DNA of 64,000 nucleotides, taken from positions 1,916-65,915 of the forward strand of contig JAYZEG010000033.1 in assembly GCA_036337435.1 (NCBI GenBank), written 5' to 3'. Shown here in pieces: positions 21,155 through 39,953 of this stretch (position 1 is its first letter; each line of letters opens with the position of its first letter). The stretch is from Myxococcota bacterium. Its GTDB lineage: Bacteria > Myxococcota_A > Bradymonadia > UBA7976 > UBA1532. Made by a program: the position numbers and the translations under genes. A model generated the notes under the pieces. The model worked only from the letters and a program-made list of their open reading frames with translations. It was not told the DNA's origin and searched no databases.

Positions 21155-22345
21155 TCAGGAGTGTCTCGGGGCTCGATATGGGTCTTTTTGATCACTCGTC
21201 TGCTCAACGTCGTCCGCAAGCTGTCTCGGTACGTGCAAACCAATTCGACTAATCACTTCATAATTGATGGTACCCGCCCAATCTCCATGCTGCTCGGCTG
21301 TTACTTCGTCGGTCCCTTGGCGTCCGAGGATAACGACGACGTCTTCAAGCTCAGCATCAGGAATGTCGGTGACGTCAATCATCATCATATTCATGCAGAC
21401 TCGCCCGCGAATCGCCGCTCGTTTACCCCGACACAAAACATGGCCCAAGTTGCTTAACGCCCGATCTAGGCCATCGAAATATCCAATTGGAAGAATGGCA
21501 ATTCGCGAGGCATGACTGGTCATGAATGTGCAGCCATAGCCGATGAATTGGCCGGCTGGGACGTCTTTGATTTGAACGATGCGGGTTTTCCATTGCAAAG
21601 CGGGCCGCAGATTGACTGTCGAACGACCGATCAAAGAGGCAGCGATCTGAGTTTCTTTCGAGGGCCACAGCCCATACCCGGAAATCCCGACGCGAACGAG
21701 GTCAAATTGCTGGTCTGGCCAAAGGAGCGTCGCAGCCGAATTAGACAAATGCTTAATCGGAATCCGATGTCCGGAATCCTCCAGTAAGCGAACAGCACTT
21801 GAGAAAAGGTCAAGTTGCTGTCGAGCGTAACGATGGTCGGTGGTATCCTCAATGTTGGCAAAGTGACTACACAGCCCCTCCAAAAAAATTCCGGCGTGTG
21901 AACGAGAGATCAATTCTGCCAATTCAAGCGCGTCCTCACGAGGCACCCCTTGTCGGTTATTCCCCGTTTCCAATTTGATGTGGAGTCGGACTGAAACACC
22001 AAGTTCGTCAAGGCGGACGACTGTCTCACGATTGTAGACCACCATTCGAAGATCTAGACCATCGAGTCGGGGCAACTGCCTCAAGCCTACTGGCCCCATC
22101 AAATAAATAGGGACGGTGATTCCAGCGTCCCGCAAAACCTCCGCATCTTCAATTGAATGTACGGAGAGCCAATCCGCGCCACCCTTGACGAACGCTCGTG
22201 CACTCTCGACTAAGCCATGTCCGTAGCCGTTCGCCTTCACTGTTAATGCCAAGATTACATCGGGCCCGACCAACGCCCGAAAAAGCCTGACATTGTGCAT
22301 CAAAGCGGATTCATCAATTTCACACCAGACCAGAGACACGCCCAC
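21155..22345 (-). CDS. alr: Alanine racemase
   Basis: PLP-Lys motif VKANGYGHG and the C-terminal beta-domain pattern (GYGxxF, VCMNMMMIDV). GTG at 22345, or GTG at 22339, which is better spaced from GGAG. Confidence 0.9.
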   Translation of the reverse strand: MGVSLVWCEIDESALMHNVRLFRALVGPDVILALTVKANGYGHGLVESARAFVKGGADWLSVHSIEDAEVLRDAGITVPIYLMGPVGLRQLPRLDGLDLRMVVYNRETVVRLDELGVSVRLHIKLETGNNRQGVPREDALELAELISRSHAGIFLEGLCSHFANIEDTTDHRYARQQLDLFSSAVRLLEDSGHRIPIKHLSNSAATLLWPDQQFDLVRVGISGYGLWPSKETQIAASLIGRSTVNLRPALQWKTRIVQIKDVPAGQFIGYGCTFMTSHASRIAILPIGYFDGLDRALSNLGHVLCRGKRAAIRGRVCMNMMMIDVTDIPDAELEDVVVILGRQGTDEVTAEQHGDWAGTINYEVISRIGLHVPRQLADDVEQTSDQKDPYRAPRHS

Positions 22346-22357
22346 TCCGTATTCAGC

Positions 22358-22378
22358 GTCGACTCACCATGAGTCGAC
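22358..22378. promoter_or_regulatory. Perfect palindrome GTCGACTCA-CCA-TGAGTCGAC in the alr / DUF218 divergent spacer
   Basis: Read directly: 9-bp arms with a 3-bp centre, 13-19 nt upstream of the alr start. Confidence 0.35.
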
Positions 22379-22496
22379 CTAGCTTAGCTCACTTTATGTC
22401 AGCGGTGCTATAGATTGCCTCGCATCGGGAATCAAGAACCACGCCACAGCAACGCTGTAGCAACATAATCAATCTGAGTCGTGTATACTTCCCGCA

Positions 22497-23075
22497 ATGA
22501 CTAAAAAAAACCGCCATTTTGAAGAAGGACAGCGTTATCGAACCGCGGCGTTGATCGCGTGTACAGGTGGGTTGAGCGTTGTTGTCGCACTCGGATGGGT
22601 CATCCGCTCAAAGAATCAGATTGAGATTTCATCTTCAAAAGCTGTGTATCCAGCACTTGTATTCGGCTGTCCGCCGGGACCGGCGTTGACTGCTCGAACC
22701 TTGGCAGCGGTTGAGCTGGTTAAAAATGGATTTGCAGACCGAATTATCGTGTCTGGTCGAGGTGAGGCAACCCAGGCCTATGACATGTTGGTCGCTCATG
22801 GCGTCGATGACAAACGAATCGATGTAGAAGCCAAGGCTCGCAACACAATGGAGAACCTTATTTTCTCGGCACCACTTCTGAAGGGACAAACATTCTGGGC
22901 TGTCAGCGACCGATGGCATTTGCCCCGCATAAAGTCCATCGCCCGAACGCTGGACATGGACGCAATTCCTCACCCTGTCGACCGTGTTCAACCGATGATA
23001 AGCTATGCCAAGCAACTCGTACGTGAAGGCCTATCGGTTACTCACAGATGGGCGAATCCGGTTCTCTCATTGTAG
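22497..23075 (+). CDS. DUF218 (YdcF/ElyC/SanA-like) domain protein
   Basis: N-terminal TM helix followed by a DUF218-like core (RIIVSGRGEA ... NTMENL ... VSDRWHLPR). Confidence 0.7.
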   Translation: MTKKNRHFEEGQRYRTAALIACTGGLSVVVALGWVIRSKNQIEISSSKAVYPALVFGCPPGPALTARTLAAVELVKNGFADRIIVSGRGEATQAYDMLVAHGVDDKRIDVEAKARNTMENLIFSAPLLKGQTFWAVSDRWHLPRIKSIARTLDMDAIPHPVDRVQPMISYAKQLVREGLSVTHRWANPVLSL

Positions 23076-23621
23076 TGTGCTGGGGCTGCCCACCAGTTGC
23101 GCTGGGTCGATTCCGAATTGGCGAATGCTCCGTTCCCAGACTTCGTTGGCAGGCCATTCAAAGACCATTTCCGGGCGTACAGCACAATGAAGCCAGGACC
23201 CTTCAGCAATTTCCTGCTCTAGTTGTCCAGGCCCCCAGCCTGCGTATCCGATTATCAGTCGCAGATCGGGTTCATTCGCTTCGAATAACTGCTCCAATGC
23301 AGTTTTGCTTCGGCTGACCCCAAAAGCGTCATCTATGACCTGGGTTTCATCAAATGACCAAGTCGGTGCATGAACCATCCAAAGAGATTGTCGTTCTACC
23401 GGCCCTCCACGCCGCAAATGAATATGATGCCCGACACTCCAATCCAGGTTAAATGTTCGTGCGACCTCACCGCAGAGGTGCTCCGTCTCGTGATTGATGA
23501 CAAGGCCTAACGCACCTTCATCGGTATGTTCGACCATCAAAATCACCGACCTGTGGAAATTGGGGTCAAGTAATTGCGGCATCGCGATCAAGACACCGGG
23601 TGCTGCTTGAAATCTCTCCAT
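23067..23621 (-). CDS. yqgE: YqgE/AlgH family protein (UPF0301)
   Basis: The family-typical N-terminus [33 protein letters not shown] and the segment [15 protein letters not shown] overlaps the upstream stop (TAATG). Confidence 0.9.
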
Positions 23622-25093
23622 TAACGGACACCAAGTTGGGTCATTATGGTCGACGGTCGCCTAAACAAACCACGGACGATGAGGTCATCCCAACCCGTTG
23701 GATCAAGAACGCTGGCAATGGACCACTCACCGAACTCACCATCACCACCTAATTCGACCCGCGCTTGGCGTTCATTGATGACTTTGCCCTCGCTGGTCCG
23801 TAAACGTTCCAGAAAGATCTTGCGAGCTGATGCGATGGGTGCCGGCTGTTGATTATATAAGTTTCGACCCCGAAGATGTTCAATGTCGGAGACAACTGCA
23901 ACATCGCCATTGTGTAATTCGACGAGGGTTCCCACTGGAAGAAGACCTACAACAGCGAGGAAAACCCGTATGATACCAGCATCGAGGGCCGGGGGTGGAT
24001 TCGTTAACAGTTCAAGTCCGACAGCAATGGGAGACCGCGCTTTGCCTTTCTCACCGTGACGGACTTGCTGAAGATTGTAACGACTCAGCCCAAGCAACTG
24101 ACTCCATGGGTGGGCACTCGGACTTTTGGGTGCCTCGTTTAACCCATTCTCGTCCTTGAGGGTCTCACGCCACCCAACGGCCGCTGAGACTCGATTGACT
24201 AACAGATGGTTGTACGCTGCGCCCTCCACGAGCTGACGAAGTGCGAAGGACGCCACAGCTTTGTCCACGGAGATGTTGGCTGGGTCTGGATTTGGATAGG
24301 CATGCCCTGCTGAATGCAGAATCCCAGCGGTCGCTAAGTTTGAACATTCAACAGCTGATAAACCTAAGCCACGACCGAAAGCAGCTGCAAGAATCGCGCA
24401 ATCAACTGCGTTACGCGCACTGCTCCAATTTGCACCTGTCAATGTCATTGCGACCAGTAAATCTTGTTCCGTTGCGCAGGCATCAACCAATTGCTGGGCC
24501 GTACGTCGTGCGATGCGGACCTCGATGGGACGGCGCTGCAACAAGTCGTCGATACCGGCGGTTGCTTTGGCATAATTCCATAAAGTAGAGACGCCACGAA
24601 CCCCTTGACCAACCCCGTCAAGTCGGAGCGGCTGTGGCGCAAGTTTGAGCTGTGATATCCCCAATTCGATAAGACGATACTGTAGTGACTGAAATTGACT
24701 CTCGGTGTCTTCGGGTGGCCGATGACGGGCAAATTCGAAAAAGAAGGTTTTAAGCTGTTCTTCGTTTGGTCGCTCGCCAAAGATGACGCCGCCGGCTTCG
24801 CGACGCGCCAAATAGCGTTCTAATTCTTGAGCTTGTTCAAGTGTCCCTCGGTCTAACCAAAGTGCATGACTATTGATCTGCGCAATTCCTTCATGGACAA
24901 CAAAGCTGATGGAGCGGCGCTCCAAGCGAATCAACGCATCGAGTGCTTCCGTCAGTTTTTCGATGGGGCGGATCCAAGCCTCATTGTTCAAGTCATGAAT
25001 CTCACCCGTTTTTAGAAGTGAGAACACGTAAATGAGTAAGTTTTTGCCCGCGGATTGAACCTTGTCATGGCTATCTCTCGTGGTGATATTCAT
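23621..25093 (-). CDS. Degenerate (probably non-catalytic) HD-GYP-like domain protein
   Basis: NAVDCAILAAAFGRGLGLS...LATAGILHSAGH aligns by eye to the HD-GYP H...LGL...AGLLHDIGK region with the metal ligands replaced. The C-terminal FLAVVGLLPVGTLVELHNGDVAVV matches the HD-GYP tail. ATG at 25093 lies 1 nt after the upstream stop. Confidence 0.7.
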   Translation of the reverse strand: MNITTRDSHDKVQSAGKNLLIYVFSLLKTGEIHDLNNEAWIRPIEKLTEALDALIRLERRSISFVVHEGIAQINSHALWLDRGTLEQAQELERYLARREAGGVIFGERPNEEQLKTFFFEFARHRPPEDTESQFQSLQYRLIELGISQLKLAPQPLRLDGVGQGVRGVSTLWNYAKATAGIDDLLQRRPIEVRIARRTAQQLVDACATEQDLLVAMTLTGANWSSARNAVDCAILAAAFGRGLGLSAVECSNLATAGILHSAGHAYPNPDPANISVDKAVASFALRQLVEGAAYNHLLVNRVSAAVGWRETLKDENGLNEAPKSPSAHPWSQLLGLSRYNLQQVRHGEKGKARSPIAVGLELLTNPPPALDAGIIRVFLAVVGLLPVGTLVELHNGDVAVVSDIEHLRGRNLYNQQPAPIASARKIFLERLRTSEGKVINERQARVELGGDGEFGEWSIASVLDPTGWDDLIVRGLFRRPSTIMTQLGVR

Positions 25094-25094
25094 A

Positions 25095-27704
25095 TCACTT
25101 CTCCGGCTCAGCTTCGACGTAGGCCTTGAGAAGGTCACTCAAAGCGTCTTCGCCACCAGGCTGAGCCGCCTCCCCCGCTCCATTACCCTTGTCGTCCTTG
25201 GGATCGTTGGTTCTATCTGTGTTCTCAACTCGAACCTCTTCGGCAAGAATCTGTGGGGCTGGCGCATCGGGATATCGTGCGTCGTGGCCGACATCGTGGT
25301 CGGCACTCGATGCCTCCTGCGATTCATCTAGATAGTCTTTCAGCAAACTGTTCATGTCGGGTGTTGACTCAGGCGTTGACTCACCAAAGGCAGCGGGCGC
25401 GTCTCCTGATCCACCGAGATAGGCTTGTAATAGGTCGTCGACCTGCTCTGGCGACTGTGGCTCAGCTCGCCGCGGTGACCGCGAGCGTTCGATGATGCGC
25501 GGCGGGGGCAAAGTGGTTTTCGCCCGTTGCCTGACATCCATCGTTTGCTGACTGACTCCAATCAGCCCGAGATCAACGTCCACCACTTGAAACCGCTCAC
25601 CCGATAGGACAGCGGGTGCCGCGACAAGGCGACGCCGATCCCATACGTCTAGAAAATCCTGATGATTCAATAACGGCGATGGACCCAAATCGGCCATCCC
25701 GGTGGCCACCACGGACACGACCGATGGACCCGTCTGAGGCGCATTCGGTGCCGGAGGTGCATCCGCTCGGTGCTCGTTGGCTTGAGTCACAGCTGACTGG
25801 GCAGCTCGACGAGATTTAGCGTGGGCAATCTTGGCCTCGATGTCATGGTAACCGAGGTCATCCAATGTGAATAAGAGGTGCCTGCCCATTCGGTGCTCGC
25901 CGATGGATAAGTCCTCATCAGCTGGCCCTTCGTCTGATAGCTCAAACTGCTCCTGGTCATCGTCGCTTGAAGCGCGCTGAGAGAGACGGATGACGACGTC
26001 GCAATGGGCAGCCAAACTGAGGTCAGCGCGCGTCTTGACCTCACGGATCAGCGCATTGGCCGCTGGGGTATTCATCACGCCGAGCGCTGAGATGACAGCC
26101 CGACGCGTGATGTTGTCGGTGACGCCGCTGGCTCCCCTTTTCAGGAGCTTACTCAATCCGCTCGTTTCCTCGAGCTGCAAACGTTCTTTGAGCAGGTCGA
26201 GGTGTTTTTCTCCGGACAGACGAACAAGAGATTCCATCAGCTCACGTTGCTCATCTTCACCTCGAGAAAAGAATTCTCCCGATTTGATTGAGTGGGCGAA
26301 ATAAGTCACAACGGACTTGTCGTTCACGTCAACGAATCGCTTGAGAACGGCCCGTCTAACCGTGGGTTCCGGATCTTTGAGTAGGGGCAGCAAAGCCTCC
26401 CTAATTTCAAGGTCATACTGTTCCGACAGCCCTTCTATGGCCTTCGTTCGCACAGACCCCTCAGGATGTTTAAAGGCGTCGACAAGCAGAGATTTCGCCT
26501 GGGTTTCGAGGCCACTGCTCATGATCACGTCGATGACTTCAAGAACAATACCTGGGTTCGGATCACGCATACGCTCGGCCCACGGATCGAGGGACGAAGT
26601 GCCCTGACGCCTGAGCTGATCTTTAAGCCAGTCCCGCCCACTCACGTTGCCGCAGCCGTTGACAAGTTCGAGCAATGTTGGCGCGGTCAGTTCTTCAGCA
26701 ACGTGAAAAAACCATCGACTCCATGTTGTAAAATCAGTGTGTTCAGGGTCCAGGTGTTCTGCCACTTGCTCGGCCATATCTCGGCCCATAACAACCTTAC
26801 GCAGTTTCTCTAAGCGCTCCAGTATGAGCGGCGAGAATGCATCTCTGACATCAAAAATGGTCTTCACAGTCCGCATAGCGTCTGCAAAACCTTGCCAATC
26901 TGCATCAGCGAGATAGGAGCTGAGCACGCGAACCCAGATCCCCTGTAGTTCAGCGTTGCTCAGCGCATTTCTCTCGGCGAGTGCCTGGCAAACACAGAGG
27001 TGAACCAAATGATTGGTATGAGCACCCAAGGTTGTTTCGGTGTTAAATAAGCCGCGCCCTTGACTGTCATCGGCCCCAAGTGCTTTTCGAATTTTCCGCT
27101 GTTCGACATCAGCGCGATCAACATCCTCACGGGAATCTAAGCGAACCATTGCTCGGGGTTCGGCATCATCCTCGTCGTCGTCATCCATCTCAACCAAGCC
27201 GGGTGCAATGTCATCTAGCACGGTCCTGAATTGCTGAATAAACTCAGCCTCGGACATAAAGATCTTCTCGGTGAATGTGTCGATGGCAATTATGGTGATA
27301 TGAGGACTCGAGTCCTGCCACATCATGGTGACGAAATCTTCATCGATCTGGTCTGCGCTCCGACACTCGGAGAACCGGCGGACTAAGCCTTCTAACTCGT
27401 CGTAGTCAACACCGGGCCGAAAGGTTAGTCTCCGTAGGCCCTGGCGGAAGAGGTCAAATGCCAAGTTATTGGTGCGGGCTTCAGATTTGTAGACCTCGTC
27501 ATCTTCACCCATCATGATGCGGTTACTCGAGATGTCGAGTTCAAACTCGCCCAATTGACCGACTGCACGCTGCAGGATGTCGAAGATGCTCTTTACCGCA
27601 TTTTCGTAGTCGGAGCGGTTTTCATTTAGCAAGGGGGCTGCGTCACGGATGCGCTTCAATAAGTCGCGTACGAGCTGCCCACCACCGTCATTCGCTACCA
27701 CCAC
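25095..27704 (-). CDS. Large HEAT-repeat protein (869 aa), function unknown
   Basis: GTG start at 27704 has AGGAGG 9 nt upstream. HEAT-like repeats are present (HPEGSVRTKAIEGL, LLPLLKDPEPTVRRAVLKRF), along with an acidic linker (DDDDEDDAE) and a Pro-rich, low-complexity C-terminal tail. Confidence 0.75.
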   Translation of the reverse strand: MVVANDGGGQLVRDLLKRIRDAAPLLNENRSDYENAVKSIFDILQRAVGQLGEFELDISSNRIMMGEDDEVYKSEARTNNLAFDLFRQGLRRLTFRPGVDYDELEGLVRRFSECRSADQIDEDFVTMMWQDSSPHITIIAIDTFTEKIFMSEAEFIQQFRTVLDDIAPGLVEMDDDDEDDAEPRAMVRLDSREDVDRADVEQRKIRKALGADDSQGRGLFNTETTLGAHTNHLVHLCVCQALAERNALSNAELQGIWVRVLSSYLADADWQGFADAMRTVKTIFDVRDAFSPLILERLEKLRKVVMGRDMAEQVAEHLDPEHTDFTTWSRWFFHVAEELTAPTLLELVNGCGNVSGRDWLKDQLRRQGTSSLDPWAERMRDPNPGIVLEVIDVIMSSGLETQAKSLLVDAFKHPEGSVRTKAIEGLSEQYDLEIREALLPLLKDPEPTVRRAVLKRFVDVNDKSVVTYFAHSIKSGEFFSRGEDEQRELMESLVRLSGEKHLDLLKERLQLEETSGLSKLLKRGASGVTDNITRRAVISALGVMNTPAANALIREVKTRADLSLAAHCDVVIRLSQRASSDDDQEQFELSDEGPADEDLSIGEHRMGRHLLFTLDDLGYHDIEAKIAHAKSRRAAQSAVTQANEHRADAPPAPNAPQTGPSVVSVVATGMADLGPSPLLNHQDFLDVWDRRRLVAAPAVLSGERFQVVDVDLGLIGVSQQTMDVRQRAKTTLPPPRIIERSRSPRRAEPQSPEQVDDLLQAYLGGSGDAPAAFGESTPESTPDMNSLLKDYLDESQEASSADHDVGHDARYPDAPAPQILAEEVRVENTDRTNDPKDDKGNGAGEAAQPGGEDALSDLLKAYVEAEPEK

Positions 27705-27826
27705 TAGAAAACGCCTCCTGCATTTGCGTCATCGAGGAGAGCGTAGCCTGGAAAAGGGCTTTCGACAATCTTCGCGATGCCACAATTTTAGATTTATTTA
27801 GTCCCCGTCTCCAAAAGAGCTTATTT

Positions 27827-28975
27827 TTAGCTTGTCCTAATGAGTCGTTTAAAGCTGGTCATAGCCCGGATAATCTCGTCGTCAGTGGTATACGGCGCGG
27901 GTCCAAAGCGAATGATATCAGCACGTGAATCAGCGAATATGCCCAGTTCACGAAGGGACTGGATCAGGCTTGACGCCCTCGGGTGCCGAATGGAGACGAA
28001 GCCGCCACGCGATGAATCCGTTGGGGTCAGAATATGACAATCTGGCAGTTGGTCGATGATCAACTGAGTCTGCTGAAGCGATGTTTCTCTGAGGGCCTCG
28101 ATGGTCATGCCCTGCTGCTTGAAGAACTCGATCACCTCGACAGCGCGATAATGGCTCGCCGGATCATAGGTGCTGCCAGCGAAACGGTCCGCGGGCGTTG
28201 TTCCGTAGCCGATCTGGGTTCCTTGGCTCCCATCGAGCCCCGCGAAATCGCTGAACCAACCCGTGTAAATTGGACGGAGTCGGCACTCAGCGGGGACTCG
28301 CATCCAGCAACAGCCTTCTCCCCATTGCGCGTATTTATAGCCTCCGCCTGTAACAAAGACATTGTCGCTGGGCAGCGGACCTAATTGGTTGGGGACGGCA
28401 GCATAAGCATGATAGGCATCCAGCAAGAGTGGAATCCCTTTCCCGACCGCATACGCCATCAATTGGGGGAGCCTTGGCACCATCTCGGCGGTTTTGAACA
28501 AGACCGTAGACACCATCAGGGCAGCGGTGTTTGCGTTACATGCATCGGCCAATCGCTCGACCAATGTATTGATGGGGGTTGTCTGGACCCAATGAACACG
28601 AAGCCCTGCCTCTTCCGAGCGTATGAGTTGCCGTCGAAGACTATGAAACTCACCGTCAGTTGTCACAACGGTCCGGCCGGCGAGCTCTAGGCCCGATAAA
28701 AAACGAACCGCGAGTTCATGACTGTTCTGCGCAAGCGCGATTTCGTCTGGCTCTGTGTGTAGATAGTCAGCAACTGCAGCACGGACGCAATTGGCCTTTT
28801 CGGTCGCACATCGCCACTTGTCATCAACGTGATTTGCGGCATCAAGATAGGCTTTCTCGAGACCAACTCGGGCCACATTAGGCCACGCCTGATGAGAATG
28901 ACCCGTTAGAAGAATCCTGTCAGGGCGGAGAAAATCTGAATAATGGGACCGCAATTTTTCTCGATTTAGAGCCAT
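27827..28975 (-). CDS. Kynureninase-like class V-fold PLP-dependent enzyme
   Basis: Motifs GHSHQAWP, LLDAYHAYAA, GGGYKYAQWGEG (PLP-Lys context), RFAGSTYDP and IRFGPAPYTT parallel kynureninase-family motifs recalled from memory. Confidence 0.75.
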   Translation of the reverse strand: MALNREKLRSHYSDFLRPDRILLTGHSHQAWPNVARVGLEKAYLDAANHVDDKWRCATEKANCVRAAVADYLHTEPDEIALAQNSHELAVRFLSGLELAGRTVVTTDGEFHSLRRQLIRSEEAGLRVHWVQTTPINTLVERLADACNANTAALMVSTVLFKTAEMVPRLPQLMAYAVGKGIPLLLDAYHAYAAVPNQLGPLPSDNVFVTGGGYKYAQWGEGCCWMRVPAECRLRPIYTGWFSDFAGLDGSQGTQIGYGTTPADRFAGSTYDPASHYRAVEVIEFFKQQGMTIEALRETSLQQTQLIIDQLPDCHILTPTDSSRGGFVSIRHPRASSLIQSLRELGIFADSRADIIRFGPAPYTTDDEIIRAMTSFKRLIRTS

Positions 28976-29069
28976 AACTGGTTCTCCGCTTTGAATTCGT
29001 GCAGACTCAACTTAGGATGCACAAGTTACAGACGAGAGCATACTAGCAATTAGACTTCGGGGGAACTCT

Positions 29070-31898
29070 ATGGTCGAGCAAGTGACAGGCGCAGCCGACT
29101 GGCGCTCAGAAACTGAAAAACGCAAGTCTTTGCTACGGAAGGCGTGCATATCCATGTTCAAGACATGGATACCTGATCATCCTGAAGCATCGATGGCCAA
29201 GGGCGAAGTGTACCCCCAGTTTCGAGATGCGACCCAAGATTTTGCGGACAGCATCTCGTTGGTCAGTCTACTGTCCTTCGGTTCCGAGGACATGTTCTGT
29301 CACGACTTTATCTCGACGCCCCTATCTATGCAGGAACTGCTGGTCCAACGAGAAGGTACGGACGCGTTTCTCGATCCAAAAAATGCGTTGCGGGTGGTCC
29401 GACGAAAGTTTGGCATGATGACACTCATCGCCCGAATGGCCAGCACCTTTGAGCAACGGAATATCGTGGCGATCCGTGTCACTCATGGTGCCGACCAAAA
29501 CGAGCTCGTTGAGTTCGGACGAATCATGAGCACGCGCGTCGAAGGGACAGCAACGGAAGAAGAAGTCGAATTCAAAAAACGGTTGCGCACCGCCAACTGC
29601 CCACACTTTGAGGTTCTCTATCACAGCGATTTAATCGGGCGCCGGGTGCCTGTGCCTTGGCCAGTCAAAGAGCTCTATTCACTGCTGGGTCGAACCTATC
29701 GACAAAAGAGGTCGATTCAACCAGAAGAACTCGTTGATTTTGCCCACAAGCACACCAGCCGCCTTGGTGCAAAGGCGCTGAAACAGCTCAGTCTCTACTC
29801 CGAGGAAATGGCAACGGATTTAGACGCCGGCGAACTAAATCCGTTCGCAGACATTGTCAAAGCGGCTGATGAACGCCTTATGCTGACGGCCACACGAAGC
29901 ATTTTTGACGAATTCAAGGCGTTGAGGACACTGCGCCGACAAGAACGCATTAAGTCCAGTGATGAGCCGATGGACGCCTCCGAGGAGACCGACGATGGCG
30001 AACAACTCGAAGTCGACACCGATGAAGAATTCGTTGCGGAAGCTCAAGCAGAACCAGGCGGTTTAGATGACGACGAGTTTTTTCGACTTGCAAAGGGTCT
30101 CGAACTCATCAGAAAGACCCTTGGAAAGGCGTTCTTTCATCGCATTTCGATGGTCAGCGGAGACGTTAACTTCGTCGATGCTGCACGGGCCGGGATCGAC
30201 GGTCTCGATGAAGGGTCCGGTCACGTAACAGACCCCGGCGAGGCATTGCTCCAGGCGCGAGACGTCACAGAGCCATTCTACAGAGCCCGTTCTCTGTCGG
30301 CCGTGGTCGCCCCTTTGCTCTCGGTGGGCCGAGACGATGATGCGAAGAAGGCGGCACTCGAATCTCTGGCGGCTGCCCGAGCCTGTCACGCTGATGATTC
30401 CGTATCAGCATACGCATGTGCGGTGCCCGCACTGCTGACAGCCGAGGAGTTTCGAGAGGCTGCCGGTGCGCTCGAGGTTGCTCTGCGAAAGGCCCACGAC
30501 AACAAGAACGATGAGCAACGCGCATCGGCACTGATGCGAATGTGCTCAACTCTGATGGAGTCGGGTGCCTTACCAGCGGCAGTGAAGCGATCTCTTTCTC
30601 GTTCAATTCTGGGAGAAGACATCAATTTTTGGGGAAAGTCGGTCATTAAGTCGCCGCTTGTCGAAGTCATTCTATCCCTGCTGTCTGGTGTTGACGACGA
30701 CACGCTTATTTTTCTGCAAAAGGTCGTCGTTCACCCAGACGACAGCATCCGACGCAGTGTATTGCGGACACTGCCCCTAGGCGAAAATGAGCACATTCGA
30801 AATATGCTGGTCTCACACTTAAAAGACGATGTGACAGCTGTCCGGATTGAAGTCCTGGATCGAATTGGCACCAGCGGCGACCAAAGCCTAAGCATCTACC
30901 TGGTCAATCAATTCAAGCAAAAGACCGCAAACAGTGACGCCGAGAAAAGAGCCCTTGCCCTGAATCTGGCGCGACTTGGTGGCGTTCGCCACGTCCCCAT
31001 CTTCAACGCGATGCTCGGTAAGCTCGCGACTAAAGATGCACGGTTCATCAAGCGCTACAAACCCATCAATGACGATGCTGGTTTCCAAATTGCCGGGCTA
31101 GAAGCACTTTACCATCTCAAGAGTCGAGACGCGCGCCGGCTCATCTACAATGCAGCAACCAAGGGTCGCGGTAAGATGAAGCCGATGGCTGCTCGGGTTT
31201 GGAATGCCCTCAAAAACCAGTCCTATTCAGATCCAACCCTTCCGCGTTCGACTCATGACCCTGAATACGATGCCGAACAGGATTTGACTCTTGAGCAGGT
31301 CTTGGTCGCTCATGAGGCACAATACGGCGGACCTGATTCCAAGCTGACGGAAGACCCAGGATTGCTTGGGCGCCTCAAAGCTAAATTTTTAGGGGAACAA
31401 CCGCCGACCATGCCTCCAACGGCGCCACCCGCTGTGGGTCAACACCTGCCGCAGCATGGTTCCGGAGTCGCCGACGACCCGACACCAACAGAGAGTCCGG
31501 AGTTGGATAAAGTGCCAACCGCAGAGCGACTATCCACCGATAGCCAGGTCGATGAGGTATCTCCAGGACAAGAGCCAGTGCCCCCGGCGGAAGACGTTGG
31601 CCCCATCCGAGCGGGTCTCCGCTTTGAAGGGGTATTGAGTTCCGATGGTGAGAAATGGACGGGGACTTTGCCGATGAAGTTCACCCTCTTCGATGAGAAG
31701 AACGGAGGGAAAGCGTTCTGGAAGGAAGATCGGGACCATGTCATGGTCACCGCCGGCCGTTTCGAAGTGCTCTTAGGCGTGGACCAAGCCCGCCTACCCG
31801 GATTGCCTCAAAAAGTCTGGCTCAATGTGGAAGTCGACGGAGACACCCTCGAGCCGAGGACAGAAGTGAGTCGATATCGGTCTGTGATTCAGGGCTGA
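29070..31898 (+). CDS. Large HEAT-repeat protein (942 aa) with a distinct C-terminal beta-domain
   Basis: ATG has GGGGGA upstream. It has an acidic linker (DASEETDDGEQLEVDTDEE), HEAT-like repeats (HPDDSIRRSVLRTL, KDDVTAVRIEVLDRIG) and a Pro-rich spacer. The C-terminal about 100 aa resemble a domain common in surface proteins. Confidence 0.75.
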   Translation: MVEQVTGAADWRSETEKRKSLLRKACISMFKTWIPDHPEASMAKGEVYPQFRDATQDFADSISLVSLLSFGSEDMFCHDFISTPLSMQELLVQREGTDAFLDPKNALRVVRRKFGMMTLIARMASTFEQRNIVAIRVTHGADQNELVEFGRIMSTRVEGTATEEEVEFKKRLRTANCPHFEVLYHSDLIGRRVPVPWPVKELYSLLGRTYRQKRSIQPEELVDFAHKHTSRLGAKALKQLSLYSEEMATDLDAGELNPFADIVKAADERLMLTATRSIFDEFKALRTLRRQERIKSSDEPMDASEETDDGEQLEVDTDEEFVAEAQAEPGGLDDDEFFRLAKGLELIRKTLGKAFFHRISMVSGDVNFVDAARAGIDGLDEGSGHVTDPGEALLQARDVTEPFYRARSLSAVVAPLLSVGRDDDAKKAALESLAAARACHADDSVSAYACAVPALLTAEEFREAAGALEVALRKAHDNKNDEQRASALMRMCSTLMESGALPAAVKRSLSRSILGEDINFWGKSVIKSPLVEVILSLLSGVDDDTLIFLQKVVVHPDDSIRRSVLRTLPLGENEHIRNMLVSHLKDDVTAVRIEVLDRIGTSGDQSLSIYLVNQFKQKTANSDAEKRALALNLARLGGVRHVPIFNAMLGKLATKDARFIKRYKPINDDAGFQIAGLEALYHLKSRDARRLIYNAATKGRGKMKPMAARVWNALKNQSYSDPTLPRSTHDPEYDAEQDLTLEQVLVAHEAQYGGPDSKLTEDPGLLGRLKAKFLGEQPPTMPPTAPPAVGQHLPQHGSGVADDPTPTESPELDKVPTAERLSTDSQVDEVSPGQEPVPPAEDVGPIRAGLRFEGVLSSDGEKWTGTLPMKFTLFDEKNGGKAFWKEDRDHVMVTAGRFEVLLGVDQARLPGLPQKVWLNVEVDGDTLEPRTEVSRYRSVIQG

Positions 31899-31901
31899 TT
31901 C

Positions 31902-32669
31902 TCAGCGGGGCCCTTCGAGCAACTCTTGCATTTCATTCTTTTCGGGAAGCGGACTGAAGGTCTGACCTTCGAAGGGCCCGAGTGAGATCTCAAAGCGGGC
32001 TGGTCCGAAGGGGGGTTCACCGGTTTCTCTGAGCTTGCCACGGTAGTATAAAGTTTGGCCTCGCGTATTGTCGAATCGACCTTGCCGGTCTACATTAAGA
32101 CCCCGTTTCAGAGATTCCCAATGGAGGGGAAAATGATCTGATTGGCCGATGAAGAACTCGGATAGGGCTGTCATATCGGCACTGACCGCTTTGGGTGGGA
32201 AGATGACCGACGCCCCGTAGACCTGCTGACCAACAATGGTAAATGTCATTTCCACACCATTGCTATTGATAAAAGTCGGCCCCGACGTGTCAGGGTCACC
32301 GCTTTTCTCTACCCAATGAGCGCGGTCCATGACCCTCTTCAACCAAGATTTGCTTCGACCCAGCAATCCCGTTCGCTCTACTTCAACAAGCGAGAGCCGA
32401 TCGTTCGTTTTTGGCCTGCTCTTTTTTCCAGACGAAATTAATCCGGGCTCCAGGACGTCAGCAGTCCCTTGACTCAACGCCTTCGTGGGCGGCAACTGTA
32501 AGCGTTTGACCACGGAACTACTGGATTTTTTGGACGTGTTTTCCGGCCGAGGCGGTTTCGTTTCACGTGGTTCTGATGCTGCAACCCAAAGGACGAGAGC
32601 GACCATCGAAACACCGGCCAACACGAGGCCTGCTCGTTGAAGGTTCACCGGCTGGCTCCCAACAAACAA
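31902..32669 (-). CDS. Single-pass membrane-anchored hypothetical protein
   Basis: N-terminal TM helix (LVLAGVSMVALVLWVAA), a Ser/Lys/Pro-rich linker and a globular C-terminal region. It starts 6 nt after the stop of the 957-aa gene. Confidence 0.6.
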   Translation of the reverse strand: MFVGSQPVNLQRAGLVLAGVSMVALVLWVAASEPRETKPPRPENTSKKSSSSVVKRLQLPPTKALSQGTADVLEPGLISSGKKSRPKTNDRLSLVEVERTGLLGRSKSWLKRVMDRAHWVEKSGDPDTSGPTFINSNGVEMTFTIVGQQVYGASVIFPPKAVSADMTALSEFFIGQSDHFPLHWESLKRGLNVDRQGRFDNTRGQTLYYRGKLRETGEPPFGPARFEISLGPFEGQTFSPLPEKNEMQELLEGPR

Positions 32670-32675
32670 GAGTTT

Positions 32676-35549
32676 CTAAGGTGCGACGCACGCATAATCG
32701 ATGCATTGGCCTTCCGCACAATCGACATCGAGGCGACACTCAGCTACGCCCCATCTCAATTGAAAAGACCCGGACTCACCATTGCTACCATCCACGATCA
32801 CGAACACAGGTTCATCTGCAGCCACGTCAAACACCGTAGATTCCGTGAGGGCACCGTCCGAACATGCAACGCGCCGACGCGCTGGGTTCGCGCAATCACT
32901 GACAACGTACAGGGCCAAATCCCAGCCATCCTCAGGAATTGCTTCGACATACATCATTTGGTTTTGCGGACTCGCAAGCGTGTACACCACATCACCACCC
33001 AAAGTGTTGTTTCCTGTGCATAAATTCGCATCAAGGAGCCGGTAGTCATCAATGGCTGCTTGGGTTGATGCAACGAGTTGGCCGCCAGCTGCGTCAAGCG
33101 CAGTCGCTGAATCGCAGACCTCGTTCACTGGAGCTGCACCGATTGATTCCACGTTCATCTGCACCGTCACTCGCCCGCGAGAGTTGGCATCAGCACCATC
33201 GATGACGAGATAGTAAACACCAGGTTCAACCTGGGTCTCAAACCCAAAGCCACACACATTTGCATCTCTCGCTCGACAATCCGGTCCAAGGAATGCGCTG
33301 ACAGCGAATGCATCGCCGGCCGCAGCCGCCTGCAATCTCACGTTAGCTGGTTCTAAGAAAGTCAGCCGGTAGACAACATCTGGTCCAGCGTCGCCAGTAC
33401 AGCCACTTACATCATCATTAGCTCGGTCCAGATTGACCCCAAAAACCGTGACTCCGTCGGGATTGAAAGCCAACTCCTGGGCTTGGTTACACCGGTCGTT
33501 AGCGGGTGCCAATGCCAAAGGTGCAGTGTCAACATCCAATCGATAATTGGGGCGGTCTCCGATGTCGATGCCGTCGACAGCGATAGAGTAAGTGCCGAGC
33601 TCGGTTATCGCGGCACGGGCCGTCGCAGGGCTTCTCTGACTGAAGTTCGGATCGAGTGGGTCACGCTGGCCAGTCGAACAGGCGACTTCACTGGATGCGT
33701 CTCCGCAATTACTGCGAATGCTGACAACAGGGTCGCCTAAGGTGCCGCCGGCCAAACCACTGACCGTGGCCGTCAAAAGGACCGGTAAATCAGCTTCATC
33801 ATCAAAGGAGACCGAATAGATAACCTCACCGCCATTGGCCTCACCGCCCGCACAGATCGGCGAGAATTCATCGTCTTGGGTGAGCTGTGCTTGCACGGAC
33901 GCTTGGCCTCTTTGGAGCTCAAGGGGAGATGCATCTTCGCAAAGCCGTAAGACAGCAGATGGGACGGCCGTCATGCTAACCCGATACGTCCCCGAACCTG
34001 ACCGTGCGCTCAGCTCGAGGCAGTAGGGGCCCGCACCAGCACGAAAATTCACGGCGTCGCCTCCCTGCCGGGACCATTCGCTCTCCGTATTACGGACCGT
34101 TTCTCCATCAACTCGAATGACTCGGCCAGCGACCACAGCATCGCCGGATGTCACCTCAATGTCGATGGAGACTTCTTCTCTCACTTGAGTCGCGAAGCAA
34201 ATGTAGTCTAGGTCATCGGGACAGATACGACCGGCCAAATCACCGCTGAACCCTAACTCACCCGGTGCCCGTACTTGGCGACCGGTCTCGGGTGAATCAT
34301 CACCGGCTCCGCTTTCATTCGCGTCGTCGATACACGCTTCGCCTTCGTCCACCAAGGCGACATCGAGAACAAACGAGCCGATCCCATATGGCTGATTTTG
34401 GTCAACGACCGCAAAGATGGTCTGCTCGCTCGGGAAAGGACCGACCACAACCGCTTCGACGGGTTGGTCGCTCTGCGCGCTGACCAGTTCTACGCCATCG
34501 GCATTGCGAATAGTCAAATTCAGATTCGCGAGGTTGTCCTGTTGACGCAGGCTGACCGTTGCCGCGTTGTTGGCCGGCAAGACAAACTCGAACCAATCAG
34601 CGTCGTCACCGCAGCTCACCAAACAGCGAAGTAAGCCAGCGATGATCGGTGTTGCTGTCTCCGCTGTTTCGTTGTCTTCGTACACGTCATCGGCACATTG
34701 TGGCAAATCACATGCCCCGTTTACGCAGACCCGTGACCCAATGCATTCGTCATCGCTTGAGCAGGTGTCCGGTTCGGCGCACGCGTTGCCATCTGCGCGA
34801 ACTCGGCATTCCATGCCCGTCGGGCAATCGGAATCTTCCTGGCACGGACCGCAAATGTTGCCCGCCCGTGCTTCGAGACAAACGTGTCCGAGCACAGGGC
34901 AATCGGCGTCTGACTCACATGCACCAGACGGGTCTCGCAAACACTGCCCATCCTCCGAGCAAATCTGACCGGGCGGGCAATCCACCTCGTCGTCCCGACA
35001 GTCCGGCGTCGCTTCGCATGTCCCACCGACACAAACACGAGTGCCAAGACATTCGCGGCTGTCGCTGCAAACAGCCGGTTCAACGCACAGGTGCTGCTCG
35101 ACATCACACGTACCGGCCCCAAAACACTGGTCGTCGGTCTCGCATTGACCGCAGCGGCCATCGAAACAGAGGGGCAGAGTCGGATCTGCATCGAGACAGG
35201 CTGCATCGTCAGCACACCCATCGGCGCATGCACCGTCGACACAGATGCGGCCCTCGATGCACTGAGTATCCCGTTCACACGGGGACACTTCGACACACTC
35301 CCCCGCCTCGTCACAGGTGAGTTCACGGGGACAATCGCACTCAGCTGGCCCGACATCACCGAAATCGGAACGAGGTGGGCCTGCATCGGGCCTGCCTTGG
35401 TCAACGCCCTCATCAGGCGTTGTGCCACCGCCCATGCCACCGCCACCGCCGGCGCCGCCATCGGATTCGTCTCCTCCGCAACCCAGTGCGAGCGCCAAGC
35501 CAATGGCCAAAATCCAACGGCTGTGTGGCCGCCTAAGAAAATTTGTCAT
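32676..35549 (-). CDS. Giant secreted lipoprotein: Cys-rich repeats plus multiple PPC-like beta-sandwich domains (957 aa)
   Basis: Lipobox LALGC followed by a Gly-rich linker. About 10 repeats of the CxxDxxCxxGxxCxxGxC type are followed by repeated D/E-x-N-D...D-x-D-W/Y-F cores (DDVYEDNETAETA...GDDADWFEF; CPDDLDYICF). SD GAGGGG. Confidence 0.85.
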   Translation of the reverse strand: MTNFLRRPHSRWILAIGLALALGCGGDESDGGAGGGGGMGGGTTPDEGVDQGRPDAGPPRSDFGDVGPAECDCPRELTCDEAGECVEVSPCERDTQCIEGRICVDGACADGCADDAACLDADPTLPLCFDGRCGQCETDDQCFGAGTCDVEQHLCVEPAVCSDSRECLGTRVCVGGTCEATPDCRDDEVDCPPGQICSEDGQCLRDPSGACESDADCPVLGHVCLEARAGNICGPCQEDSDCPTGMECRVRADGNACAEPDTCSSDDECIGSRVCVNGACDLPQCADDVYEDNETAETATPIIAGLLRCLVSCGDDADWFEFVLPANNAATVSLRQQDNLANLNLTIRNADGVELVSAQSDQPVEAVVVGPFPSEQTIFAVVDQNQPYGIGSFVLDVALVDEGEACIDDANESGAGDDSPETGRQVRAPGELGFSGDLAGRICPDDLDYICFATQVREEVSIDIEVTSGDAVVAGRVIRVDGETVRNTESEWSRQGGDAVNFRAGAGPYCLELSARSGSGTYRVSMTAVPSAVLRLCEDASPLELQRGQASVQAQLTQDDEFSPICAGGEANGGEVIYSVSFDDEADLPVLLTATVSGLAGGTLGDPVVSIRSNCGDASSEVACSTGQRDPLDPNFSQRSPATARAAITELGTYSIAVDGIDIGDRPNYRLDVDTAPLALAPANDRCNQAQELAFNPDGVTVFGVNLDRANDDVSGCTGDAGPDVVYRLTFLEPANVRLQAAAAGDAFAVSAFLGPDCRARDANVCGFGFETQVEPGVYYLVIDGADANSRGRVTVQMNVESIGAAPVNEVCDSATALDAAGGQLVASTQAAIDDYRLLDANLCTGNNTLGGDVVYTLASPQNQMMYVEAIPEDGWDLALYVVSDCANPARRRVACSDGALTESTVFDVAADEPVFVIVDGSNGESGSFQLRWGVAECRLDVDCAEGQCIDYACVAP
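34690..35345 (-). repeat. Coding array of about 10 Myxococcus-type cysteine-rich repeats (within the 957-aa CDS)
   Basis: Recurrent pattern such as CERDTQCIEGRICVDGAC, CETDDQCFGAGTCDVEQHLC, CSDSRECLGTRVCVGGTC and CSSDDECIGSRVCVNGAC. Coordinates are approximate. Confidence 0.75.
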
Positions 35550-35750: not shown

Positions 35751-38700
35751 ATGGTTAGGTACATTATCTTCTTTCTCGTCAGCTTATGGATTGGCCAAAG
35801 TCAGGCGGGTGTTCCAGAACACTGGGTCAATATCGTGTCGCCCAACGCGGGAGAATGCGTGAATAATGGCCCTGAAACGTTCACAGGCGGTATTATCGGA
35901 GGCGAGGCCCAAGCACCCGCCCGAGATGTCCCCTTGGTCTTTCAAGCCTACTCCGTCGATGGAGAACCACTTACGCTCACTTTTCTGACCGAATGGACAG
36001 AAATTGCACCCAACGGCCAAGCGGTCGAGCGAAACGAAATGTATCAAATCGTTTTGAGCGTCCCTGCCGACGAAGTAGTGGAAACCGATGGCTACCCAAT
36101 TCCTGGTTTTTTCGTGAACGATGGAGATAATGTTCGGCTGACCATTCGTGCTGAGCACCCAACATTTGGACCAACTGAAACCGAGGTGGTTTTTGATCTA
36201 GACCGGGAAGCTCCGGTTGTGGTTATGAACCCCGATTCAATTGCCAATGCACAAAGTGAATGTGCGGCCGAACCGGCTGATTTTAATTACCAAGTCTCTG
36301 ATAATCGGACTCCACAAGAGGAGATTGTCAGTGACATTCGTGTCGAGCGTGATGGCTGCGTGGTGAGGCGGATTATCAGTGTACGAGATAACTGCGGCGA
36401 TGGGAACGCGCAGGAGTTGGAACTTCTAAGCGAAGCCCCCGCCGATGCTGATTCCATCGACCTAGAAATTCGAGGTTTTCGATGCACCATCGAAGGCTGT
36501 GTGACCGAAGGCGCGAACGCACAGCAGTTCGAGGATGGCGCGCGTGTGTCGATGCCAACCTTCGTGCCTGTTATCAATGCGCCAAATGGATGTGCATCGA
36601 ACGTGGAAGCTGTGGTCATGCGAGCAGATGAGCAAGTCGCGACCTGTCCTGAGACACCTCCAGTCTTGACGGGGGCGGCCGGCGATGAATGCGCTGGTGA
36701 TGCTGACTGTTCGGGCGCGCAAACGTGTGTGAATGGCTTCTGTGCGGAGCCTGCTGAGTGCCAGAACAACGCCGATTGTCGGGGCGCACGCATCTGTAAA
36801 GAGGACGGCTGTGTAAGCCCATGTTCTCCCCTCGAAGGTGGCCGAGTCTTTGAAGACGCAGGGGATTATATCGCACGATTGAGGGTCAGTAGCTGCGGAG
36901 GAAATCCTGTAGAGACCAATATGACGGTCACCGTGCTCGAGAAGCCCATCGCTGTGGCTGGCGGCAATCTGGAGAACGGCGATTATGAGGTTCGCCAAGG
37001 TGAACCACTCATTTTAGACGGGAGCACAAGCTTCGCTGCGCCCGAAGTTGGGGGCATTGTTGAATATGCCTGGGACTTGAATGGCGACGGGTTTTACAAT
37101 GTTGATAACGAAGTGTTCGGCGGCGACCAACCGACCGTTGAGTTCGACACGTTGATTTCTGGAGAATTCCGAAGACGCCTGAGAGTGACGGCCGGCAACG
37201 GGACGTCCGCCTACGTATGGTTTAATATAACAGTGCTTGATGTCGACCCTGTCTGCGATGCAGGAGGTCCTTACGTGGTCTTCGAGGGTGAGGCCCTGGA
37301 ACTAGATGGAAGCGGGAGTGCCGCTGGACATGAAGCAGACCCGATCCAATCGTACGCTTGGGACTTTGGGGATGGCTTCAGACCACAGACCGGTGCGACG
37401 CTGCGCCGGCCACTCCACATTTACCGAGATGCCAGCGATGAGCCGCTCACGGTGACTTTGACCGTGTCTGACCCTGATTCTCAAAGTCAGTGCACCGCAC
37501 AAGTCATCGTCAACGACGTTCAACCGCAACTAGATGGAGTGAACATTCTCAACCCGCAGTCGGCCATCGAAGGCGAGCTGATGCGATTCGAAGCCAATGC
37601 CCAACCTGGCAGTCAGTCGGATCCACTCACCTATTTCGCGTGGACGTTTGGTCTTCCAGGTGCCGGTGTCGAAGGTGAAGCGCAACGGACCGCCGAATAC
37701 ACCTACATGGATAACGGAAGCTACCAAGTCTGTGTCACCGTCCAGGATGAAGACTCGAACGTCAGTGATTGCGCGGAACTCGAGATCGCTGACCTCGAAC
37801 CCTTCGCATCAATGACTGGACCCGAGCGAGCTGTGCAGGGCGAAGAACTCACGTTCGATGCATCGAATACGCAAGCCGGTGGACTTGCTGATCCATTAAC
37901 CATGTTGGTCTGGAATTGGGGCGACGGAAGCAATCTTGAAACCGTGCAACTCGGCAACAACATTCCAAACCAATTCCTCGGCACGCACACCTATGCTGAA
38001 GACGGCGTTTACACTGTGACCTTACGCGTTGTGGACGAAGATTCTGCAGCCATCGTCACACAGGTCGTCACCGTCGAAGATGCCCAACCCGAGGCTCAAT
38101 TTGAAATCAGTTATCCTGGTCTAGAGCGGACCATTCCAGAGGGCGTCGACCTGCTCTTCAACTCAGCAGGGAGCCGAGCAGGCAGCGCGACCGATCCAAT
38201 CGAAGCATTCGTATGGGATTTTGGGGATGGCACGACACGAACGCTTGAGCCTAACCAAACAGGGGTAACCTACAATTGGGCGGACGAAGGCGCATATGAA
38301 GTCCGTCTCACCGTTCGCGACGATGACGGCAGTGAGTCGTCATTGATGAGAATCGTTGAAGTGACGAACCGCGCACCCATCGTCCAATTACAGGCCGATT
38401 CCAATCAAGTCGCCATCGGTGAGAACATTCTCTTCGTTGCACTCAGCGGGGATGTCCCTGCCGGTGATGGTGCTCGGGTCGTTGCATTGGTCGATGACGT
38501 CGAGGGTGACTTGCCACCAGCCCTTGTGCGTTGGGAAATGGGCGACGGCTCAGTTATCGAATCTGGCTCACATCGCTATGCATTCAACTCGCTCGGTCAG
38601 AAAACTGTGCGGGTCACGGTTGACGATGGTGATGGAGGAACCACAGAGGCTGAGATCGTCCTCAATGTGACACCAGCTGCGCCGTCTATTGAGGCGCTGG

Positions 38701-39914: not shown

Positions 39915-39953
39915 TGATTACGCGTGTGGACGCAGAAACTGTAATACAGAGAA

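Follow-up and report, generated by a model that had tools for sequence, protein, structure and literature searches.

A 64,000-nt stretch of contig JAYZEG010000033.1 (positions 1,916 to 65,915 of the forward strand; assembly GCA_036337435.1), from an uncultured marine myxobacterium, is called the window here; its lineage consists of uncultured Myxococcota known from Bradymonadia-like metagenome-assembled genomes (MAGs). Within the window lies a five-gene locus that encodes a degenerate HD-GYP protein, two large HEAT-repeat proteins, an AlgH/YqgE protein and an enzyme of the pyridoxal phosphate (PLP) type. Four of the genes are on the minus strand. These are a kynureninase-like PLP enzyme gene (27827-28975), an optional member of the cluster; HEAT869, which starts with GTG and encodes an 869-aa HEAT-repeat protein (25095-27704); HDl490, which starts with ATG and encodes the partner of HEAT869, a 490-aa degenerate HD-GYP protein made up of an N-terminal domain (N-domain), a dead HD-GYP domain and a C-terminal domain (23621-25093); and yqgE/algH, the last gene of the operon, encoding the DUF179 protein AlgH (23067-23621). 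The fifth, HEAT942, runs on the plus strand (29070-31898) and encodes a second, more divergent HEAT-repeat paralogue of 942 aa. The PLP gene is separated from HEAT869 by a 122-nt gap, the HEAT869 stop codon is followed after 1 nt by the ATG of HDl490, and the HDl490 stop overlaps the ATG of algH by 1 nt (TAATG). A GTG at 25138 is a possible alternative start for HDl490, but its orthologues are 487-499 aa long. The list of open reading frames gave the five genes and four junctions as an initial annotation of the sequence had described them; the fourth junction, the 94-bp divergent spacer (28976-29069), lies between the PLP gene and HEAT942, not next to HEAT869.

The degenerate HD-GYP protein

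Pfam and NCBIfam gave nothing for HDl490, the Pfam HD and HD_5 models failing to match even at E ≤ 1. Family alignments were built from homologue searches with HDl490, HEAT869 and HEAT942, and for HDl490 there were 68 near-full-length orthologues (41-95% identity). By hhalign, the HDl490 family profile aligned with P0070, a genuine HD-GYP protein by its Pfam HD_5 match (E 1.2e-22), with a probability of 98.8% and an E of 9e-17 over aa 23-404, a span that includes the N-terminal region; it also matched PDB entry 9rc0, a 'HD domain/sensory box protein', at E 1e-4. The middle domain of HDl490, delimited by the P0070 alignment (aa 190-379; 23957-24526, minus strand), is homologous to the HD-GYP cyclic di-GMP phosphodiesterases (HD_5 PF13487, HD PF01966, COG2206), among them RpfG, PmGH and PA4781. 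The alignment also reaches into the C-terminal domain (aa 380-490; 23624-23956, minus strand), which opens with the segment 'LPVGTLVELHNGDVAVV' ('LPVGT..L..G..AVV'); this segment aligns at its start with P0070, the alignment ending at aa 404, and residues G383, P386, N395, D397 and R408 of the domain are invariant in the family.

Alignment with P0070 places N in HDl490 at the first metal-binding His (R in most of the family), HS at the HD (where the His varies within the family), Q at the next H, WR at the HH and R at the D. The P0070 sequence 'GDERGYP' is aligned with 'KDENGLNEAP' in HDl490; the GYP is lost, and the family consensus there reads 'GPPYL'. In all, HDl490 has other residues at six of the seven metal ligands (H...HD...H...HH...D) and at the GYP motif, and these columns are not conserved in the family. 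The initial annotation had called HDl490 a degenerate HD-GYP protein, a description borne out by the alignment to a true HD_5 protein together with the replacement of its metal ligands. Of the solved structures, PDB 9rc0 and 9rbz come closest to the HD-like domain; the protein has 'LSQVGK' in place of the 'HDxGK' of HD-GYP enzymes and may, judging from its sequence, be a degenerate HD-GYP as well.

Loss of the catalytic residues has not been accompanied by decay of the protein. The HDl490 family has a mean column identity of 61% and many invariant residues, including D204, E209, D211, R241 and G244 in the HD domain, and since HDl490 is so strongly conserved though its catalytic residues are lost, it appears to be a pseudoenzyme under purifying selection. 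Alternatively, HDl490 could have kept enzymatic activity, its active site having been remodelled or its substrate being a different one. The strong purifying selection on the domain and its own set of invariant residues would suit such an enzyme, as would Bdellovibrio Bd1817, which Lovering and colleagues are reported to have described in 2011 as an unconventional HD-GYP that still binds metals; however, replacements at the metal ligands and GYP that vary from one family member to another, and the failure of the HD and HD_5 models to find the domain, make this quite improbable. As HDl490 fails the defining catalytic features of HD-GYP proteins, it should not be filed as a phosphodiesterase.

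Retention of an enzyme fold under selection after catalytic residues have been lost is familiar among cyclic di-GMP-domain receptors and scaffolds such as FimX, LapD and PelD, and among degenerate HD-GYPs such as Pseudomonas aeruginosa PA2572 and Bd1817, and HDl490 resembles them in this respect. A signalling enzyme fold that is kept after catalysis is lost suggests a binding or scaffolding role. HDl490 differs from those proteins in having as partners HEAT solenoids that share its N-domain, which is not known to have been described for any of them, and from HD-GYP phosphodiesterases in lacking the metal ligands and GYP, in having an uncharacterised N-domain that is neither REC nor GAF, and in its association with a HEAT partner bearing the same N-domain.

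The shared N-terminal domain

The initial annotation had drawn attention to three similar segments near the N-termini of HDl490, HEAT869 and HEAT942, all of which were located within 1-3 nt of where it had placed them. Compared directly, the three proteins did not support the resemblance. BLASTP among them matched only the HEAT regions (E 9e-9) and none of the N-termini, and hhalign of the three full-length family profiles was likewise significant for the HEAT regions only. When hhalign was restricted to the N-regions, HDl490 gave P = 0.037 with HEAT869 and P = 0.48 with HEAT942, both in the register that the initial annotation had proposed, while HEAT869 and HEAT942 gave no match in that register. 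Since this register kept recurring in weak comparisons, a broader profile was built. The route to it was opened by two distant matches of the HDl490 family, P0069 and P0070. A profile of the HDl490-family N-region (alignment A4) was searched against 1.84 billion representative proteins and found 815 at E ≤ 1e-3, of which 187 reached E ≤ 1e-10. The N-domain thus heads at least 815 representative protein clusters, of which those examined are HD-GYP-type proteins; the matches listed are mostly about 480-500 aa long, and P0163 and P0228 match HD/HD_5 weakly in Pfam. When the 111 closest representatives with a length of 400 aa or more were inspected, only 12 had both HDxGK and HH..GYP.

Ninety diverse N-domains were combined into a broad profile, which by hhalign matched the N-region of HDl490 with a probability of 99.9% (E 6e-32), that of HEAT869 with 92.7% (score 45.4, E 4e-7, 126 columns) and that of HEAT942 with 75.5% (score 38.5, E 2e-5, 69 columns, aa 110-182), all three alignments falling in the register first proposed. 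The N-domain profile of HEAT proteins encoded next to HD-GYP proteins (HEAT partners, described below) matched the HD-GYP N-domain profile with a probability of 97.0% (E 8e-11, 139 columns). The N-terminal resemblance might be a chance match of a simple helix-strand-helix pattern, in favour of which the direct pairwise comparisons were not significant. Against this, 30 column shuffles and reversed alignments reached maxima of only 15.8 and 19.6, compared with the real 45.4 and 38.5, so that the real scores exceed the highest shuffled ones two- to threefold; the two partner-type profiles agree at E 8e-11 over 139 columns, and the register was identical in every independent comparison. Chance is largely excluded by these data and is extremely improbable.

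AlphaFold2 (AF2) models agree with the profile results. The modelled N-domain of HDl490 (predicted local distance difference test score, pLDDT, 86.4) has the element order H-H-E-E-H-E-H-H-E-H, and a model of the first 300 residues of HEAT942 (pLDDT 87.2) has its elements in the same order, with a short helical insertion at aa 87-100. The domain is alpha/beta and of roughly 150-180 residues. It covers aa 6-189 of HDl490 (24527-25078, minus strand; broad-profile hhalign and AF2), aa 8-138 of HEAT869 (27291-27683, minus strand; broad-profile hhalign and HEAT-partner profiles) and aa 14-184 of HEAT942 (29109-29621, plus strand; profile match at aa 110-182 and AF2 topology). Taken together, the three segments, although not significantly similar in direct comparison, are homologous through the broad family profile; they neither failed to align nor, in the two modelled N-regions, to show the same element order. 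The N-domain is common to all three proteins, robustly so for HEAT869 and with reasonable support for HEAT942. No further copy was found elsewhere in the window.

Known families gave no relative of the domain. Pfam and NCBIfam returned no N-domain family for HDl490, P0069 or P0070, and Foldseek searches of the PDB with the HDl490 and HEAT942 N-domain models returned nothing below E 0.3, with TM scores below 0.2. GAF/PHY modules and succinyl-CoA synthetase, which came up as candidate relatives in these searches, were rejected, the matches being insignificant and not meaningful. Between its first two helices the domain carries a polar loop motif, IHDxxNxAF in HD-GYP proteins and IYxxNNP in HEAT partners, which is not conserved in HEAT869.

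The HEAT/HD-GYP gene pair and its elaboration

In the contexts of distant N-domain proteins, HD-GYP genes proved to be paired with HEAT genes. P0070, P0212, P0221 and P0238, all with Pfam HD and HD_5 matches, are each directly preceded by a gene for a HEAT_2 protein of 583-701 aa, the junctions being overlaps of 4-26 nt or a gap of 9 nt. If a fusion of the N-domain to a kinase (P0199) is included, there are five representatives whose HEAT-type upstream gene is readable, and in 5/5 of them it lies within 10 nt or overlaps; five of the six representative contexts have a HEAT gene directly upstream on the same strand with a tight junction. The HEAT partners match the N-domain of HEAT869 with probabilities of 93.7-98.8% (E 2e-7 to 4e-17) and the HD-GYP N-domain profile with 77-94%. 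The genes that surround the pair are unrelated from one context to another (xseA/xseB-ispA-dxs, greA, gcvH, rtcB, aceK). Since the pair recurs around distant N-domain proteins, the linkage is general and not peculiar to the locus in the window.

A metagenome scan with the N-domains of three HEAT partners identified at least 414 HEAT-partner loci. Eighty loci were fetched, of which 56 were testable, their sequence continuing for 700 nt or more past the HEAT gene. An open reading frame with an HD-GYP-type N-domain (86-145 bits) was present at or near the HEAT stop in 55 of these, and nearly all full-length HD-GYP partners keep both HDxGK and HH..GYP. In this module the HEAT protein is about 550-700 aa and the HD-GYP protein about 480-525 aa, and the two reading frames often overlap or nearly abut. 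A tblastn search of plasmids with a HEAT-partner N-domain gave no match. Among the papers searched, none links HD-GYP to a HEAT-repeat partner, and the module of N-domain-HEAT and N-domain-HD-GYP proteins is apparently undescribed. The initial annotation had proposed a candidate novel locus; no described system of the same composition was found, but its HEAT/HD-GYP pairing is not special to this locus and belongs to a widespread two-gene module.

Some proteins combine the N-domain with a C-terminal Ser/Thr kinase in a single chain of 850-1050 aa (P0175, P0178, P0199, P0204, P0205, P0210, P0228 and P0235, and at loci L027 and L110). One of these, P0228, has a faint HD_5 match as well. Gene contexts were read for P0199 and for the similar 905-aa protein P0166, which has no Pfam match; both have a partner with a HEAT-type N-domain encoded upstream with a 4-nt overlap.

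Conservation closer to the window was investigated with the HDl490 family as query, one genome per species, the neighbours being mapped by tblastn. All 20 loci found come from MAGs of uncultured Myxococcota, 'Myxococcales' or Bradymonadia. The order HEAT869, HDl490, AlgH on one strand is kept in every locus with enough flank, at protein identities of 37-58%. Thirteen loci include sequence upstream of HEAT869, and 12 of these have HEAT942 there in divergent orientation, directly adjacent where there is no PLP gene. Where start calling is clear, the first possible start of HDl490 lies at most about 4 nt from the HEAT869 stop or overlaps it. The gene order is the same on a 91-kb contig that carries a 42%-identical member (P0062). 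A more distant lineage (L108; GCA_053991815.1, JBMYEM010000071.1, 110-7467) has the three proteins as a co-directional tandem, with an orthologue of HEAT942 (931 aa, E 1e-191) encoded first, an orthologue of HEAT869 with tail motifs (1024 aa, E 3e-63) and a degenerate relative of HDl490 (488 aa, E 7e-70). Its presence in the window's lineage and, rearranged, in this second one indicates that the triad is a unit found in two arrangements. The neighbourhood is conserved, then, across the 20 MAG loci and the P0062 locus, with the triad recurring in the second lineage, and this, with N-domains that are homologous via the broad profile, upholds the suggestion of the initial annotation that the proteins form a paralogous set built on one N-terminal module.

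Gene order conserved within a narrow lineage might by itself have kept these genes together, with no joint function. The wider region is indeed syntenic in the lineage, including alanine racemase, DUF218, ABC-F and the dcw cluster as well as a Cys-rich secreted protein. However, flanking genes move among the 20 MAG loci while the core stays intact, the triad recurs rearranged in the second lineage, and the HEAT/HD-GYP pair recurs in unrelated contexts with reading frames that often overlap. These data largely exclude shared gene order as the explanation, and we consider it very improbable.

The locus in the window is a lineage-specific elaboration of the widespread HEAT/HD-GYP two-gene module. 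In this lineage the HD-GYP metal residues have nearly all been lost, the HEAT partner bears a long disordered tail, which in HEAT869 holds three acidic 'DDLLxxYL' motifs, a second HEAT paralogue is present, AlgH/YqgE is translationally coupled, and a kynureninase-like gene is sometimes inserted.

The two HEAT proteins share an overall architecture, recognised by the initial annotation and confirmed here, of N-domain, acidic linker, helical region, HEAT repeats and Pro-rich tail. Searches found 34 orthologues of HEAT869 and 51 of HEAT942. HEAT869 matches Pfam HEAT_2 (PF13646) at 42.9 bits against a cut-off of 27.7 (E 6e-11, aa 407-472), HEAT942 matches it weakly (16.4 bits, E 0.011), and the HEAT942 family profile matches alphaRep HEAT designs at E 1e-9. 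By hhalign the HEAT regions of the two, aa 402-591 of HEAT869 (25932-26501, minus strand) and aa 544-729 of HEAT942 (30699-31256, plus strand), align with a probability of 98% (E 1e-13). Both have the short type of repeat seen in PBS-lyase-type HEAT proteins (PF13646, PF03130; NblB, CpcE/F, YibA). They differ from those proteins in the absence of a bilin-lyase context, in the additional N-domain, acidic linker and long disordered tails bearing motifs, and in being obligately paired with an HD-GYP gene.

The disordered tail of HEAT869 contains three copies of an acidic motif, VDDLLQAYL (aa 755-763; 25416-25442), MNSLLKDYL (aa 784-792; 25329-25355) and, at the extreme C-terminus, LSDLLKAYV (aa 855-863; 25116-25142), all on the minus strand; the third was checked in the translation. 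Each of the 29 family members has between one and four copies of the pattern, [VILMA]-x-x-[LIMV]-[LIVM]-x-x-[FY]-[LV], mostly with [DE][DE] before LL, and 28 of them have a copy no more than about 15 residues from the C-terminus. At one locus, a 376-aa Pro-rich protein is encoded upstream of the degenerate N-domain protein P0171 (L026:615-1745). It lacks the N-domain and carries 'SMLDLLKAYLDP', the same acidic motif as in HEAT869 tails, and by its appearance is either what is left of a HEAT partner or a relative that consists of the tail alone. HEAT942 has instead a single basic hydrophobic motif, GLLGRLKAKFLG (aa 764-775; 31359-31394, plus strand), in a disordered linker, conserved as G-[LF]-F-x-R-L-K-x-x-L-F-G in 26/30 family members. 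The tail motifs of HEAT869 are acidic (net -4 over 18 residues each) and that of HEAT942 is basic, and these opposite charges raise the idea, no firmer than that, that the two tails might bind each other. The HEAT942 pattern also recalls the amphipathic membrane-targeting helix 'KGFLKRLFGG' of Escherichia coli MinD; since its hydrophobic moment is unremarkable (0.28, about 230th of 931 windows in the protein), the likeness stays one of pattern.

AlgH is a clear member of its family (Pfam PF02622, DUF179; 134.7 bits against a cut-off of 27, E 3.7e-39, profile positions 1-157). Its gene directly follows HDl490 in 20/20 related loci and, where start calling is unambiguous, its first possible start is at most about 4 nt from the upstream stop or overlaps it, a spacing from which algH appears to be translationally coupled to HDl490 in the window's lineage. 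Family membership is thus typical but the coupling to a dead HD-GYP gene is not; in E. coli, yqgE lies next to ruvX/yqgF. The YqgE protein of E. coli acts through Lon to promote dormancy and persistence, by a biochemistry that is unknown, and algH of P. aeruginosa has been implicated in the regulation of virulence factors (PMC11634777).

The PLP enzyme matches KYNU_C (PF22580) at 50.3 bits against a cut-off of 27 (E 2.4e-13). In the PDB it is closest to kynureninase 1qz9 (E 2e-11), over aa 139-371 only, with the PLP-lysine motif 'GGGYKYAQ' aligned to 'GCTYKYLN' of 1qz9; NCBIfam gave no kynureninase model and only weak matches to cysteine desulfurase-type models. The gene is present at nine loci (L001-3, 6, 7, 10, 11 and 15 and the P0062 locus), lying between the two HEAT genes in L001-3, 6, 7, 11 and 15 and upstream of HEAT869 where the contig ends in L010, and absent from L008, 9, 12, 14 and 18, so that it is missing in 5/12 loci spanning both HEAT genes. 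The kynureninase-like enzyme that the initial annotation had associated with the locus is thus an optional member of the cluster. None of the 87 loci scanned outside the window's lineage had a HEAT942-type N-region, AlgH or the PLP enzyme nearby, and the gene list of the second triad lineage includes neither AlgH nor a PLP gene.

A proposed complex and other features of the locus

A mechanism can be proposed in which the shared N-domains would pair with one another, a common behaviour of paralogous domains in the products of adjacent genes. In the canonical module, the HEAT solenoid would then be a regulatory or targeting subunit of an HD-GYP phosphodiesterase. In the window's complex, cyclic di-GMP hydrolysis would have been lost, leaving a non-catalytic scaffold or receptor, whose HEAT solenoids and short tail motifs might recruit other proteins. 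In the window's lineage, AlgH, whose synthesis would keep pace with that of the other subunits, is a candidate for a partner or an output. Elaboration of the two-gene module combined with a non-catalytic complex joined through N-domains is the best overall explanation of the locus, one that we think somewhat probable.

A different role for the N-domain would be that of a small-molecule sensor, each protein responding independently to the same ligand, perhaps a product of the kynureninase-like enzyme, with no need for a complex. The N-terminal domains of HD-GYP enzymes are commonly sensory (REC in RpfG, for example), the polar loop motif is conserved in both partner types, and GAF/PHY sensor modules were the top Foldseek matches, insignificant as these were, none being found at E < 0.3. 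However, the loop motif is not conserved in HEAT869, and the PLP gene that would supply the ligand is absent from five of the 12 loci spanning both HEAT genes and from 87/87 loci scanned outside the lineage. Strict adjacency (55/56), often with overlapping frames, is also a better fit to stoichiometric co-assembly than to independent sensing. A sensor domain acting in this way is rather unlikely.

Several points weigh against the proposed N-domain-joined complex. The tie of HEAT942 to the N-domain consists of 69 aligned columns and the order of its structural elements, and the N-terminal half of HEAT942 alone was not significant against the profiles. AlgH is absent from the second triad lineage, and adjacency within the window's lineage is weaker evidence because the wider region is syntenic too. 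All the sequences come from uncultured organisms, and both the pairing of the N-domains and the complex are inferred.

HD-GYP proteins are the less understood class of cyclic di-GMP phosphodiesterases, and the control exerted by their non-REC N-terminal regions is largely unknown. The HEAT/HD-GYP pair offers a concrete hypothesis, that the N-domain links the enzyme to a HEAT subunit that regulates or targets it, by which the regulation of a large HD-GYP subfamily becomes directly testable, and the module provides a natural series from active enzyme to pseudoenzyme scaffold. Its coupling to AlgH/YqgE in one lineage offers a way to approach this widespread protein, which has an effect on E. coli dormancy but no known biochemistry (PMC11634777). 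More broadly, and as a tentative proposal that we would not yet expect to hold in full, a large HD-GYP subfamily may be an obligate two-subunit assembly of a HEAT solenoid and an HD-GYP protein joined via a structurally new N-domain, which in some Myxococcota has become a non-catalytic three-protein scaffold and in one lineage has been wired to AlgH/YqgE. If true, this would be a new architecture for cyclic di-GMP signalling and would give AlgH its first biochemical context.

The remaining features of the region are minor. An Rfam scan of 22000-33000 found no RNA family, and in a scan of the region for promoters and terminators the counts were near the shuffle expectation. A sigma-70-like promoter match (TGGAGA, 17 nt, TAAAAT) at 27785-27813 on the minus strand, to be read with that regional count in mind, falls within the 122 nt that separate HEAT869 from the PLP gene; with a promoter predicted there, the HEAT869-HDl490-algH operon could be transcribed without the PLP gene.

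The last 100 or so residues of HEAT942 form a C-terminal domain (aa 845-942, '...FTLFDEKNGGKAFWKEDRDHVMVTAGRFEVLLG...PRTEVSRYRSVIQG'; 31602-31895, plus strand), defined by its conservation through the family and present in the orthologue from the second triad lineage. Neither Pfam nor the PDB gave a sequence match for it. It is expected to be beta-rich, and it is reminiscent of repeat domains in large secreted or fibre-like proteins of environmental bacteria.

Tail-to-tail with HEAT942, on the minus strand, lie genes for a 255-aa protein (31902-32669) and for a 957-aa Cys-rich protein, probably secreted (32676-35549), whose Pfam-type matches are all weak (GBD_T9SS_assoc and Dickkopf_N). The 957-aa gene adjoins HEAT942 at eight of the related loci (L001-3, 9, 12, 14, 15 and 18) at about 40-90% identity, which may reflect either functional linkage or conserved gene order. 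Downstream of the Cys-rich gene, at 35751-43361 on the plus strand, two very large and probably secreted proteins are encoded, one of 1387 aa with five PKD domains and the other of 1135 aa with a weak PPC match.

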